From: a virus
Lineage: Duplodnaviria > Caudoviricetes
Strand: one strand, 5' to 3'
Length of the DNA stretch: 64,000 nt
Virus record (IMG/VR): IMGVR_UViG_3300036770_005357
In this document: one piece after another, positions 955 through 3,424 of the stretch
Layout of the letters: each line of letters opens with the position of its first letter
Position numbering within the stretch: the first letter of the stretch is position 1
Position numbers and translations under genes: made by a program
The notes under the pieces: generated by a model
Told to the model about the DNA's origin: nothing
Database searches by the model: none
What the model saw: only the letters and a program-made list of their open reading frames with translations

Positions 955-1031
955 TGGTAGCTAGGGTCAGATTCGAACTGACACTGGACCGATTTTGAGT
1001 CGGGTGCCTCCTGCCGTTGGGCTACCTAGCC
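955..1031 (-). tRNA. tRNA-Leu(CAA), short variable region, CCA encoded
   Basis: GGCTAGG/CCTAGCT acceptor, CCCGA-CTCAAAA-TCGGT anticodon arm, GTCAG-TTCGAAT-CTGAC T arm, ACCA. Confidence 0.9.
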
Positions 1032-1045
1032 ATTAAAATTAAAAA

Positions 1046-1138
1046 TGGTGGTCCTGTCAGGTAACGCTCCTGATTCTTACGCTAGTCCGGCGATTAACTG
1101 TGTTATAAGCACAGCGGCTTTCTTTAAGCTACAGGACC
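1046..1138 (-). tRNA. tRNA-Ile(UAU), atypical: 5-nt D loop, 24-nt extra arm, T loop AGCGTTA
   Basis: GGTCCTG/CAGGACC acceptor, GCTT/AAGC D stem, CTGTG-CTTATAA-CACAG, TCAGG-AGCGTTA-CCTGA, ACCA. Confidence 0.8.
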
Positions 1139-1148
1139 ATTTTAAAAT

Positions 1149-1160
1149 TTTTAAAGAACT
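1149..1160 (-). promoter_or_regulatory. boxA-like element upstream of tRNA-Ile
   Basis: AGTTCTTTAAAA on minus strand, similar to rrn boxA TGCTCTTTAACA. Confidence 0.55.
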
Positions 1161-1178
1161 ATCAACTTCTATGTAATA

Positions 1179-1206
1179 ACTATACCATGTTCTTTTTAAG
1201 AGTCAA
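1179..1206 (-). promoter_or_regulatory. sigma70-type promoter driving tRNA-Ile/Leu/HNH
   Basis: TTGACT-16 nt-TATAGT with extended -10 TGG. Confidence 0.75.
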
Positions 1207-1276
1207 CCGAAATTTTTGGTTTCGGGTTAAATATTTAAAATTCGATTTTTGAGTTTTATTTATATATTTATATTAT

Positions 1277-1951
1277 ATGACTTTTTTATTTACTGACAAA
1301 GATTTCGAAAATGCTAAATCACATGACAAGTTGAATCTTAAATGTAAAAATTGTAACGGAACATTTTCTTCTACCAAGAAAGCGATTAATTTTGAATTAA
1401 AACATAAAAGAGGTAGATTACAATTTTGTACAAAAAAATGTTTTGATGATAAACAAACTAATAAAAATCCTGTTAATTGTAAACAATGTAATAAAATAGT
1501 TTTAAAAATACCTAGTCAACTTAAAAGGTCTCCGAATACATTTTGTTCTTCTTCTTGTTCCGCAACTTATAATAATACACATAAAAAATTTGGTACTAGA
1601 AGATCTAAATTAGAAAAATGGTTGGAAGAAAAATTGATTCAGTTACATCCGAATTTAGTTTTTCACTTTAATCGTAAAGACACTATCAACGCCGAATTAG
1701 ACATTTATATACCATCTTTAAAGTTAGCATTCGAGTTAAATGGAATATTTCATTACGAACCAATATATGGAGAAGAAAAACTACATTCAACTCAAAATAA
1801 TGATAAAAGAAAATTCCAAGCGTGTTTAGAACAAAAAATTGAACTTTGTATTATAGATGTTTCCAAAGAAACATATTTTAAAGAACATATATCAAAAAAA
1901 TATTTAGATATTATAAATAATATAATAAATTCTAAATTGTTGAATTCTTAG
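1277..1951 (+). CDS. Free-standing homing endonuclease-like protein (Zn-ribbon repeats + PD-(D/E)xK Vsr/DUF559-like domain), antisense within the tRNA array
   Basis: CxxC..FCxxxC repeats, then ELDIYIPSLKLAFELNGIFHY..NDKRKFQAC. TATTTATA at 1265-1272 just upstream. Confidence 0.75.
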   Translation: MTFLFTDKDFENAKSHDKLNLKCKNCNGTFSSTKKAINFELKHKRGRLQFCTKKCFDDKQTNKNPVNCKQCNKIVLKIPSQLKRSPNTFCSSSCSATYNNTHKKFGTRRSKLEKWLEEKLIQLHPNLVFHFNRKDTINAELDIYIPSLKLAFELNGIFHYEPIYGEEKLHSTQNNDKRKFQACLEQKIELCIIDVSKETYFKEHISKKYLDIINNIINSKLLNS

Positions 1952-2009
1952 TTACAGATATTAACTGTATGCAATAGTCACTGCGTGCAAGTGATTCAAC
2001 TTGACTATC
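1939..2009 (-). ncRNA. HDV-like self-cleaving ribozyme (tRNA-associated, theta-type, with P4)
   Basis: P1 GATAGTC/GACTATT (G1.U), P2 GTTGAATC/GA(A)TTCAAC, P3 ACT/AGT, L3 TGCACGC (U20, G25), P1.1 GC/GC, P4 TACAG/CTGTA, J4/2 ACTAA with catalytic C at 1951. Confidence 0.88.
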
Positions 2010-2084
2010 TTGCAGCTACAGGAGTCGAACCTGCTATCGCCTGGTTATGAGCCAGGAATGATATTTCCGTTTCACTCAGCTGCG
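2010..2084 (-). tRNA. tRNA-Met(CAU), initiator-like (C1:A72), no encoded CCA
   Basis: CGCAGCT/AGCTGCA with C1:A72 mismatch, CCTGG-CTCATAA-CCAGG, GCAGG-TTCGACT-CCTGT, discriminator A at 2010 followed directly by ribozyme G1. Confidence 0.85.
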
Positions 2085-2092
2085 ATTGAAAA

Positions 2093-2104
2093 TTTAAAAG
2101 AACT
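2093..2104 (-). promoter_or_regulatory. boxA-like element upstream of tRNA-Met
   Basis: AGTTCTTTTAAA. Confidence 0.5.
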
Positions 2105-2116
2105 AAAATTGTAAAT

Positions 2117-2281
2117 TGGTGTTGGGTATTTTTATTGAATACTTAATTACCCAACGAATCAAGTATACCATGAACTAACCCCGCAACCAAGAAATTTTTA
2201 AGAGAATTTCCAACTCTGGGAGTTTTTGGTTATATACTCCTCCACCAGTCAGTTTTGAATTTGGATGTCTGACAACCAAAA
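2117..2281 (-). ncRNA. Candidate pseudoknotted ncRNA ending in ACCA (tRNA-Glu/tRNA-Met spacer)
   Basis: 5' domain: TTTTGGTT/AACCAAAA, GTCAG/CTGAC, GGAGT/ACTCC. 3' H-type pseudoknot: ATACTTGAT/ATTAAGTAT + GTTGGGTA/TACCCAAC, then ACCA. Confidence 0.5.
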
Positions 2282-2282
2282 G

Positions 2283-2357
2283 TGGCAGTCCTGCGGAGAT
2301 TCGCACTCCGGTCTCTTGGATGAAAGCCAAGAATCCTAACTACTAGACGACAGGACC
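2283..2357 (-). tRNA. tRNA-Glu(UUC), CCA encoded, T loop TGCGAAT
   Basis: GGTCCTG/CAGGACT, CTTGG-CTTTCAT-CCAAG, CGGAG-TGCGAAT-CTCCG, GCCA. Confidence 0.9.
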
Positions 2358-2367
2358 ATTTAAAGCG

Positions 2368-2510
2368 AACTGGTAACCCGATTCGGTTTTTTACGAACCG
2401 GTTTCCTACTGTCTTTAGGCGGATGATTTATGTTTTCTCTTCTCACGTCAAGCGGTTATACAATAGACAGTGTATAACTTTTTGTCATCCTCTCTAGATA
2501 ATTACCAGTT
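2368..2510 (-). ncRNA. Candidate multi-stem ncRNA with kissing loop (tRNA-Lys/tRNA-Glu spacer)
   Basis: 10-bp closing helix AACTGGTAAT/GTTACCAGTT, GGATGA/TCATCC, GTTATACA/TGTATAAC, CCTA/TAGG, CCGGTTCG/CGAATCGG, loop-loop CTGTCT/AGACAG. Confidence 0.6.
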
Positions 2511-2515
2511 TAAAT

Positions 2516-2590
2516 TGGTAGGGCGCCACGGTAACGATCCGTGTTCTACTGGTTAAAAGCCAGTTGCTTCACCGTTAAAGCTTGCACCCC
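2516..2590 (-). tRNA. tRNA-Lys(UUU), CCA encoded, T loop ATCGTTA
   Basis: GGGGTGC/GCGCCCT, GCTT/AAGC, ACTGG-CTTTTAA-CCAGT, CACGG-ATCGTTA-CCGTG, ACCA. Confidence 0.9.
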
Positions 2591-2598
2591 ATTAAAAA

Positions 2599-2610
2599 TG
2601 TTAAAGAACT
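2599..2610 (-). promoter_or_regulatory. boxA-like element upstream of tRNA-Lys
   Basis: AGTTCTTTAACA, 10/12 identical to E. coli rrn boxA TGCTCTTTAACA. Confidence 0.65.
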
Positions 2611-2626
2611 AAACTTACAGAAACCG

Positions 2627-2754
2627 TGTAACTTTTGTATCCCTAAAGTTACAGAAAAGGGTCAGACTCACACTGAGGTGATAAGTTGTTTTTTCGTTAA
2701 ACTTATAACAATCGGTTGAGTTTTTAGTTTTCGGTATCGGACTCAACTAACCTT
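2627..2754 (-). ncRNA. Candidate structured 5' leader RNA
   Basis: GGTTAG/CTGACC enclosing TTGAGT/ACTCAA, ATAAGTT/AACTTAT and CTCA/TGAG hairpins, followed by the 9-bp hairpin TGTAACTTT/AAAGTTACA. Confidence 0.4.
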
Positions 2755-2762
2755 ATGTAATC

Positions 2763-2790
2763 ATCTTACCAGAACTTTTCGTTTTGTCAA
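2763..2790 (-). promoter_or_regulatory. sigma70-type promoter for Lys-Glu-Met tRNA transcript
   Basis: TTGACA-16 nt-TAAGAT with extended TGG. Confidence 0.75.
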
Positions 2791-2812
2791 CCGTCTTTTT
2801 TCTTTTTCTTTT

Positions 2813-2887
2813 TGGCGATCCCCTTTGATAGAAGGTCAAGGCGATTCCTGCACACTTAGATGCTCTGGAGGAGTGCTACTCCCGCCA
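2813..2887 (-). ncRNA. Candidate 75-nt GC-rich perfect four-way-junction RNA
   Basis: TGGCG|GGAG-TAGCA-CTCC|TCC..GGA|ATC..GAT|CGCCA with no unpaired junction nucleotides. Has its own promoter and a boxA-like element upstream. Confidence 0.5.
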
Positions 2888-2891
2888 TGCT

Positions 2892-2903
2892 AGAAAAAGA
2901 ACT
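2892..2903 (-). promoter_or_regulatory. boxA-like element upstream of four-way-junction RNA
   Basis: AGTTCTTTTTCT. Confidence 0.4.
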
Positions 2904-2916
2904 TACTATACTTATT

Positions 2917-2944
2917 ATCCTACCACAAACTTTTCAAAGATCAA
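2917..2944 (-). promoter_or_regulatory. sigma70-type promoter
   Basis: TTGATC-16 nt-TAGGAT with extended TGG. Confidence 0.6.
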
Positions 2945-2990
2945 GTATTTTTTGTAGTTATAAATATATAAATGTTCAAAAAAATACTTG
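2942..2990. repeat. 12-bp inverted repeat enclosing a TATTTATA motif, downstream of tRNA-Arg
   Basis: CAAGTATTTTTT (2942-2953) / AAAAAATACTTG (2979-2990). TATAAATA at 2959-2966 on plus strand. Confidence 0.6.
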
Positions 2991-2996
2991 TAAAAA

Positions 2997-3077
2997 TGGC
3001 GCTTCGGGAGGGATTTGAACCCACATTTACATCCAATTATGCACTTAGAGCTTAGAAGACTCCGCCATTACCGAAGC
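2997..3077 (-). tRNA. tRNA-Arg(UCU)-like, D stem absent, long variable arm, CCA encoded
   Basis: GCTTCGG/CCGAAGC acceptor, 7-nt connector TAATGGC, GGAGT-CTTCTAA-GCTCT, extra arm TGCAT-AATTGG-ATGTA, GTGGG-TTCAAAT-CCCTC, GCCA. Confidence 0.7.
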
Positions 3078-3094
3078 ACGATCACTTATTGAAA

Positions 3095-3424
3095 TTACTG
3101 CTTATCCTTCTTTAGTTCATCTTGTACTGACTTACCCAGTTCTGTCAAGCCAAAAAGTGGCTCTCCATTCTTATCATAACCAACAATCTGTACAAGTCCT
3201 TGCTTGACAAGATCATCCACAGTTTCCTTAACCTCCATAAGAGAAGCCTCTTCATAGATTTCATTGGCTTCAGCTTCGTCACAACCAGTTTCCTTCATAA
3301 TGTACTCAATGGCAGATTGTCGTTCACACTGCTTATCCAGCTCATCTACATTAAGATTTGCGCAATGGTTAAGCACTTGATCAATTGTACCGGTAAACAT
3401 ACCACCGTGTTCAGAAAATTCCAT
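3095..3424 (-). CDS. Hypothetical protein, possible C-terminal winged helix
   Basis: ORF track. C-terminus LVKQGLVQIVGYDKNGEPLFGLTELGK. Confidence 0.6.
   Translation of the reverse strand: MEFSEHGGMFTGTIDQVLNHCANLNVDELDKQCERQSAIEYIMKETGCDEAEANEIYEEASLMEVKETVDDLVKQGLVQIVGYDKNGEPLFGLTELGKSVQDELKKDKQ

Follow-up and report, generated by a model that had tools for sequence, protein, structure and literature searches.

What does a jumbo phage keep in the spacer between two of its tRNA genes? The locus that raises this question lies in a 64,000-nt stretch of DNA (hereafter the window), part of the IMG/VR virus record IMGVR_UViG_3300036770_005357 (Duplodnaviria; Caudoviricetes; 173 kb, ~73% complete, ~30% G+C). 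A tRNA gene array was located with ARAGORN and Rfam at 955-3077 on the minus strand of the window, and a reading made from the sequence alone had placed a discrete, multi-helix RNA of 143 nt between its tRNA-Lys and tRNA-Glu genes, at 2368-2510. Based on the results of the computational analysis presented here, this element is almost certainly a real, conserved and structured RNA gene of a new family, found in a clade of freshwater jumbo phages that are rich in A+T. As for its role, we favour on balance a small stable RNA that is processed from the tRNA operon transcript and acts in trans by binding a partner.

Fold of the element

Read on the minus strand, the 143 nt at 2368-2510 form a four-way junction composed of P1, P2 carrying P2a, P3 and P4, with the following parts (coordinates are those of the window; A6 is an alignment of seven sequences described below):

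2501-2510, minus strand: 5' strand of the closing helix P1, AACUGGUAAU, 10 bp with 2368-2377 (fold)
2491-2500, minus strand: J1/2, linker, purine-rich and variable, 9-12 nt long (alignment A6)
2485-2490, minus strand: 5' strand of P2, GGAUGA, pairing with 2421-2426
2479-2484, minus strand: internal-loop strand CAAAAA, kept in six of seven sequences (alignment A6)
2455-2478, minus strand: P2a hairpin, 8 bp, with the loop CUGUCUAU at 2463-2470
2427-2454, minus strand: purine-rich unpaired strand, 28 nt (alignment A6)
2421-2426, minus strand: 3' strand of P2, UCAUCC (covariation)
2405-2420, minus strand: J2/3 (G2420) and the P3 hairpin CCUA-AAGACAG-UAGG, 4 bp, the hairpin itself at 2405-2419
2402-2404, minus strand: J3/4, AAA, invariant (alignment A6)
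2378-2401, minus strand: P4 hairpin, CCGGUUCG-loop-CGAAUCGG, 8 bp, flush with P1 (fold and alignment)
2368-2377, minus strand: 3' strand of P1, GUUACCAGUU (fold and alignment)

The minimum-free-energy fold of the 158-nt spacer between the two tRNA genes matches this layout exactly (-38.9 kcal/mol, z = -3.37); of 200 dinucleotide shuffles of the spacer, none folded as stably. However, the plus strand folds well too (z = -4.22), so that folding energy cannot choose the strand. All of the helices, the purine-rich unpaired segment and the loop complementarity (CUGUCU/AGACAG) described in the sequence-only reading were recovered on the minus strand. That reading had also recognised no known ribozyme or riboswitch core, in agreement with our scan of the element against Rfam 15, which returned nothing at the gathering score and nothing at E <= 10.

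Homologues

Homologues of the element were found in metagenome contigs. The adjoining 109-aa helix-turn-helix (HTH)-like protein (window 3095-3424, upstream of the array) has homologues of 52-65% identity, and the contig that encodes a 57%-identical one (L037) holds the element between tRNA-Lys and tRNA-Glu (85.9 bits, E 7e-21). An 18-mer common to the window and L037 led to L039, L040, L041 and L042 (JGI metagenomes), and L052/L053/L055 and L057 were reached through other proteins of the same clusters. Covariance-model matches of 86-184 bits (E 1e-19 to 1e-45) were obtained in L037, L039, L040, L041, L042, L052/L053/L055 and L057; L038 has the 18-mer but gave no covariance-model match. The total is seven distinct sequences from four to five lineages, in which the neighbouring 109-aa protein is 57-65% identical to that of the window. 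Each homologue, folded alone, adopts the same P1-P2-P2a-P3-P4 layout, and the purine-rich strand, which spans 22-31 nt, keeps the pattern ACG...AAAG...ACAAA.

The phage region was also present in DNA runs of 10 studies, mostly freshwater. Logan contigs from four runs of four studies carry the element at ~99% identity, with only two strain-level substitutions (2430 A>G and 2445 A>G), both of which fall into the unpaired purine-rich strand.

Among GenBank phages, blastn matched the flanking tRNAs only, and one tRNA-Glu pattern searched in IMG/VR returned zero. No family member was found by blastn, nhmmer and the single-sequence model R1 in 32 loci, and models R1 and R2 gave no true match in 25 related jumbo-phage records, the loci and records having been gathered via the neighbouring glycosyltransferase and an antisense 224-aa open reading frame (ORF). 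Weak matches in L032, L046 and L047 have a different fold and no tRNAs nearby. Three matches of a closing-helix pattern in genome contigs (Segatella, Prevotella and a Rhodospirillales metagenome-assembled genome) were due to chance and were rejected by the covariance model, and E. coli genomes showed no similarity to the element. The family was not found described in a literature search, in which the IMG/VR candidate-RNA catalogue (PMC10690425) could not be checked for it.

Covariation and strand

The covariation test was performed on the seven-sequence alignment A6 and covered 294 cells, 95.9% of which are in standard pairs; when the 3' partners were slid by 1-3 columns, pairing fell to 23-40%. 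The observed covariation score was reached by none of 500 column shuffles. The compensatory double changes occur in P2, where they affect three of six pairs (GGAUGA/UCAUCC, AAAUGA/UCAUUU and AGUUGA/UCAACU), and in P2a, where they affect four of eight pairs and 98% of the cells are paired. Between lineages, identity is 79-86% in paired columns versus 56-67% in unpaired ones. In P1, nine of the ten pairs are invariant in the seven sequences, the outermost A-U being lost in three; the four pairs of the P3 stem and the core of its loop are invariant in all seven, as are the lower 6 bp of P4, the top 2 bp and loop of which are variable. Some 50 nt are the same in every lineage, namely AACUGGUAAU, GCCUA..GACAGUAGGAAACCGGUU and GAAUCGGGUUACCAGU.

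Six G.U positions fit the minus strand only and would be A.C mismatches on the plus strand, which indicates that the RNA is read on the strand of the tRNAs. This asymmetry had been pointed out in the sequence-only reading; it holds for U10.G134 and G113.U130 in the window and extends to four further positions in the homologues. Taken together, the compensatory changes, the pairing and the strand-specific G.U pairs show that the folded element is a selected RNA structure, and with the homologues they bear out the proposal of a discrete multi-helix RNA encoded on the strand of the tRNAs, an RNA that is moreover conserved.

Loop-loop complementarity

The first five bases of the P2a loop, CUGUC, and the core of the P3 loop, GACAG (2409-2413), are both invariant and mutually complementary, while the other positions of the two loops vary, which is the pattern expected if exactly those bases matter. 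A kissing loop of 6 bp had been proposed for this site. The 5-bp core CUGUC:GACAG never varies, but two lineages retain the sixth pair and two lack it: it is U-A in the window lineage, A-U in L037, G.A in L039 and L042, and A.A in L052 and L057 (by sequence, UA in two, AU in one and unpaired in four). By our own arithmetic, the chance of a perfect 6-mer complement is ~0.0015 for loops of 8 and 7 nt with six placements. The kiss is a conserved 5-bp complementarity without informative covariation, and the two loops probably pair and lock two arms of the RNA.

Genomic slot

The element is enclosed by the following features:

2763-2790, minus strand: sigma-70-type promoter TTGACA-16-TAAGAT with TG extension, 10 of 12 matches plus TG, upstream of tRNA-Lys
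2516-2590, minus strand: tRNA-Lys(UUU) with encoded CCA (ARAGORN and Rfam RF00005, 44.3 bits)
2511-2515, minus strand: linker AUUUA, 5 nt, between the tRNA-Lys CCA and P1, invariant
2358-2367, minus strand: linker CGC-UUUAAAU, three variable nt followed by conserved UUUAA(A)U, directly 5' of tRNA-Glu
2283-2357, minus strand: tRNA-Glu(UUC) (ARAGORN and Rfam, 56.5 bits), the downstream neighbour in all lineages

The element lies 5 nt past tRNA-Lys and 10 nt ahead of tRNA-Glu on the minus strand, i.e., the tRNA strand, and its slot is constant in all homologues: tRNA-Lys(UUU)-CCA-AUUUA-element-NNN-UUUAA(A)U-tRNA-Glu(UUC). The upstream neighbour is tRNA-Lys(UUU) also in L037, L039, L040, L052 and L057, and the AUUUA linker is identical across five aligned lineages, L052 and L057 reading alike. 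The flanking tRNAs are swapped between lineages and the slot is still kept. A tRNA-Lys with an aberrant T loop (GGAUCGUUACC in the window) is present in the window, L052 and L057, and a canonical one in L037, L039, L040 and L042; in L057 a group I intron splits the tRNA-Lys anticodon loop (L057:4368-4670; RF00028, 57.7 bits). The tRNA-Glu alleles comprise a 75-nt form and an 80-nt form among the lineages.

Some minor observations concern these flanking genes. A second tRNA-Lys allele with identical flanks occurs in run contigs and shows paired anticodon-stem changes at 2550/2562 and 2552/2560. The 80-nt tRNA-Glu(UUC), which has an enlarged D region (GUAGCCGAGCGCAAAGUGGUCCAGCGG...), stands in place of the 75-nt form at L040:717-796 and L052:6948-7027; ARAGORN finds the L040 copy and misses the same sequence type in L052. 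In a 1561-nt contig of run X10, an aquatic metagenome, 2281 is joined to 2360 and 1210 other letters replace the 78-nt tRNA-Glu, which could be an insertion or replacement at tRNA-Glu in a near-identical strain or else an assembly artefact.

Transcription, processing and possible role

The promoter at 2763-2790 belongs to a block, GTTGAC...TAAGAT, that is conserved in L037, L039, L040, L052 and L057, and no conserved promoter or terminator was found between tRNA-Lys and tRNA-Glu. This promoter is the likely start of a tRNA-Lys / element / tRNA-Glu transcript. The conserved promoter and the fixed linkers of 5 nt and 9-10 nt strongly suggest that the element is co-transcribed with the two tRNAs. 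RNase P cuts at tRNA 5' ends, and RNase E prefers sites of the type RN-WUU, the hyphen marking the cut; the linkers, with AA-UUU and GC-UUU, presumably suit this preference. It is thus plausible that an RNA of ~145-155 nt, closed off by P1, is set free. No RNA run was listed for the element or for the wider region, which counts neither for nor against its expression.

Based on these features, we infer the following course. The gene would yield a non-coding RNA of ~143 nt (~145-155 nt when the trimmed linkers are counted), which would lie in the middle of a tRNA-Lys(UUU) / RNA / tRNA-Glu(UUC) precursor made from the sigma-70-type promoter. Host enzymes of tRNA maturation would free it, RNase P by its cut at the 5' end of tRNA-Glu and an endonuclease, probably RNase E, by cuts within AUUUA and UUUAAAU, the two AU-rich linkers, after which the 3' end would be trimmed. 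P1, with 9-10 bp, would seal the ends and stack on P4 without a linker, and P2 and P3, joined by a single G, would complete the linker pattern of a tRNA-type four-way junction. Pairing of the P2a and P3 loops would leave the purine-rich strand of 22-31 nt exposed. The P1-P4-P3 half, which is conserved far beyond the needs of pairing, could be a docking surface for a protein or RNA partner, and the RNA would act in trans during infection, in which it is likened to RNAC and RNAD of phage T4. The 50-nt core is invariant though the phages have diverged to ~60% protein identity, and the Lys/Glu slot persists despite tRNA replacement or invasion by a group I intron; together these suggest a specific partner rather than a passive spacer.

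Several results weigh against this reading. P1, P3, most of P4 and the 5-bp kiss are invariant, and for these parts covariation neither supports nor refutes the structure. Near-identical strains keep the neighbouring spacers equally well (~99%), so that the strain data are uninformative for structure, and the neighbouring spacers are conserved between lineages as well, so that conservation alone does not mark out the element. The lineages known are only four to five, and five exact or gapped patterns of the element returned zero matches in IMG/VR beyond the window's own record. The sixth kiss pair is unpaired in two of four lineages. Moreover, the linkers of 0 nt and 1 nt suggest stacking of P1 on P4 and of P2 on P3, and an intramolecular kiss would then require P2a to fold back along P2/P3; a fold-back at the asymmetric internal loop is a plausible geometry.

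Comparison with known RNAs

Small stable RNAs inside phage tRNA clusters have a precedent in the species 1 and species 2 RNAs of T4, which were described in the 1970s, but we know of none with a known function. The corresponding genes, rnaC (species 1, 139 nt) and rnaD (species 2, 119 nt), are annotated as small stable RNAs at the end of the T4 tRNA cluster. They resemble the element in size, in being encoded inside a phage cluster on the strand of the tRNAs and only a few nt from one of them, and in being absent from Rfam. The fold of rnaC, furthermore, has the topology of the element, in that a closing helix encloses a long arm and a hairpin, and a third arm stands flush with that helix. However, the third arm of rnaC is a true T arm (CCGGG-UUCGAAU-CCCGG), whereas P4 of the element has a variable loop of 7-10 nt and no T-loop motif. 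The element also differs from both T4 RNAs in its conserved loop-loop complementarity and in its position between two tRNAs instead of at the cluster end, and model R2, run with filters off over the T4 tRNA region, gave no hit on rnaC or rnaD. By this comparison the element appears to be of the same kind as rnaC and rnaD and a member of neither family. The roles of the T4 RNAs are still unknown (PMC3014915). The kind of RNA is thus already known from T4, while this family and its architecture are new; a family with a covariation-supported structure adds to the RNAs of phage tRNA clusters and offers a compact object of 143 nt for the study of processing, loop contacts and protein binding.

The element also shares features with tRNAs, namely its location in a tRNA operon and its junction linkers (P4-P1 0 nt, P2-P3 1 nt, P3-P4 3 nt). 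A tRNA was nevertheless rejected: ARAGORN and cmscan were blank at 2368-2510 (E <= 10), and T loop, D loop and 3' CCA are lacking. In contrast to tRNA and YrlA, P2 of the element encloses P2a plus the strand of 22-31 nt. A Y RNA (YrlA, RF02553) was likewise rejected, with no Rfam match and no TROVE/Ro60 gene (PF05731) in the 173-kb record, which is ~73% complete. Like the theta ribozymes (PMC10879173), the element is a structured RNA directly downstream of a phage tRNA. Theta ribozymes, however, adjoin tRNAs that lack CCA and fold as the HDV double pseudoknot, whereas the element is preceded by an encoded CCA and 5 further nt, its 5' end pairs with its 3' end, and none of the HDV-like models gives a match. 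The other candidates considered, i.e., the self-cleaving families (hammerhead, twister, twister-sister, pistol, hatchet, HDV-like and hairpin; E <= 10) and the lysine riboswitch and other kissing-loop riboswitches, had no match in the Rfam 15 scan. Mimicry of 16S rRNA helix 45 was set aside, the two having no more than short words in common.

Alternative explanations

Among the alternatives, a purely cis-acting processing or insulator element survives best, although we consider it unlikely. The folded spacer would matter within the precursor only and then be degraded; it could prevent co-misfolding of tRNA-Lys and tRNA-Glu, or order RNase E, RNase III and RNase P by means of the AU-rich linkers and the ~18-bp P1/P4 stack. 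The very short and fixed distances to both tRNAs, the conserved AU-rich linkers and the presence of other conserved hairpins and leaders beside tRNAs of the same array are consistent with such a function, and the coaxial stack of P1 and P4 has roughly the length of RNase III substrates. On the other hand, other tRNA pairs stand 2-15 nt apart without any such element (Leu/Ile at 1031/1046 in the window and several in L039), and a spacer needs neither 50 invariant nt nor two invariant complementary loops nor a conserved four-way junction. The element, moreover, persists while the flanking tRNA alleles are exchanged.

We give little credence to a second possibility, in which the RNA would be a tRNA-shaped decoy or sensor against host defence directed at tRNAs, trapping or titrating an anticodon nuclease. 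tRNA-Lys(UUU) and tRNA-Glu(UUC) are classic targets of anticodon nucleases, and U-G-U is recognised by the queuine-inserting TGT and by anticodon nucleases of the colicin E5 type. The P1/P4 stack would copy the acceptor/T-arm helix, and the C-U-G-U-C of the P2a loop would copy the start of the anticodon loop of tRNA-Asp, which we take it to resemble, masked by the GAC 'codon' in the P3 loop.

Another possibility, to which we attach an equally small weight, is that the complementary loops pair between molecules and form a reciprocal kissing dimer or a higher oligomer. The P2a loop is 14 bp plus an internal loop away from the junction and the P3 loop only 4 bp, so that a sharp fold-back would be needed for an intramolecular kiss, and both loop cores are invariant. 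There is also a precedent in ROOL and GOLLD, the kissing loops of which were first read as tertiary contacts and proved to be intermolecular quaternary bridges (PMC12286853). However, an asymmetric internal loop (6 nt versus 22-31 nt) is a hinge of the type that permits fold-back, and oligomerisation would alter the geometry of the RNA and not its identity.

It is more doubtful still that the element is a new self-cleaving or catalytic RNA shaping the neighbouring tRNA ends, analogous to the tRNA-associated HDV-like (theta) ribozymes. An invariant multi-helix junction with a conserved loop-loop contact is typical ribozyme architecture, as in the contact between the loops of stems I and II of the hammerhead, and theta ribozymes beside phage tRNAs have been published (PMC10879173). 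Nevertheless, no Rfam ribozyme family matches even at E <= 10, and the hammerhead CUGANGA box is absent from J1/2 in all lineages (alignment A6). Since tRNA-Lys encodes its CCA and 5 nt follow, cleavage at the edge of the element would give no useful tRNA end.

That the element is no functional RNA gene at all, but a decayed tRNA, an insertion like a miniature inverted-repeat transposable element (MITE), an internal promoter of tRNA-Glu or a short ORF, is very improbable, and the covariation goes far to refute it: the terminal inverted repeat of 10 bp is MITE-like, GGUUCG...CGAAUC in P4 recalls a T arm, two weak promoter-like matches lie inside the element (2488-2460 and 2451-2423, 9 of 12 each) and an ORF starts from an AUG at 2488 (MTKSYTLSIV; the third position of its UCN codon varies synonymously), but the element keeps one slot in four to five lineages and its compensatory changes, G.U pairs included, reflect selection at the RNA level.

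The particular forms of this last alternative were rejected on grounds of their own. A MITE was dismissed as the element is a single copy in the 173-kb record and syntenic; the P1 stem, with one mismatch per strand allowed, occurs once in that record and at other loci only around the same interior. An internal promoter was rejected as its spacing is not kept, 6 nt being deleted from the spacer in L037. A leader peptide would have 8, 10 or 12 codons depending on the lineage, starts with UUG in L037 and has no spaced Shine-Dalgarno sequence, and coding cannot explain the compensatory changes. A palindrome at the DNA level was excluded by the strand specificity of the G.U pairs. An extension of P1 by AUUUA/UAAAU pairing was also rejected: L037 forms no more than 3-4 of the 5 pairs, and UUUAAAU is found ahead of further tRNAs in the array too.

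Other features of the array

A second structured RNA that is not a tRNA lies at 2814-2892 on the minus strand, upstream of tRNA-Lys and between two conserved promoter-like blocks, one of which is at 2917-2944 (minus strand). It is conserved and cloverleaf-like, with three hairpins and a closing helix of 5 bp that reads GGCG/CGCC in the window and GGUG/CACC in homologues. Compensatory changes affect five of its pairs when the window, L039 and L037 are compared, and copies also occur in L040, L052 and L057; neither ARAGORN nor Rfam detected it.

The spacer between tRNA-Glu and tRNA-Met (2084-2282, minus strand) has ~75% identity in L039 and L042. It contains a hairpin directly past the tRNA-Glu CCA, with compensatory changes, a promoter-like TTGGTT-17-TATACT with TG, and a leader hairpin, GUUGGGUA/UACCCAAC, with covariation in L042.

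Right after the HTH-like gene, a weak but conserved tRNA match (~30-35 bits) was obtained at 3000-3077 (minus strand) of the window, at L052:6350-6427 and at L057:4013-4090; by eye, it reads as a tRNA-Arg(UCU) with a reduced D arm.

The 224-aa ORF at 1277-1951 (plus strand) is antisense to the tRNAs. It had no Pfam match here, and a weak RAP-domain match is given in the record of a homologue. Its homologues occur in many unrelated tRNA arrays of jumbo phages, where they end 0-20 nt from the 3' ends of different tRNAs (Trp, Gln, Thr, Met, Arg and Glu). The ORF has the look of a mobile gene of the homing-endonuclease type directed at tRNA arrays, and segB of T4 is comparable.

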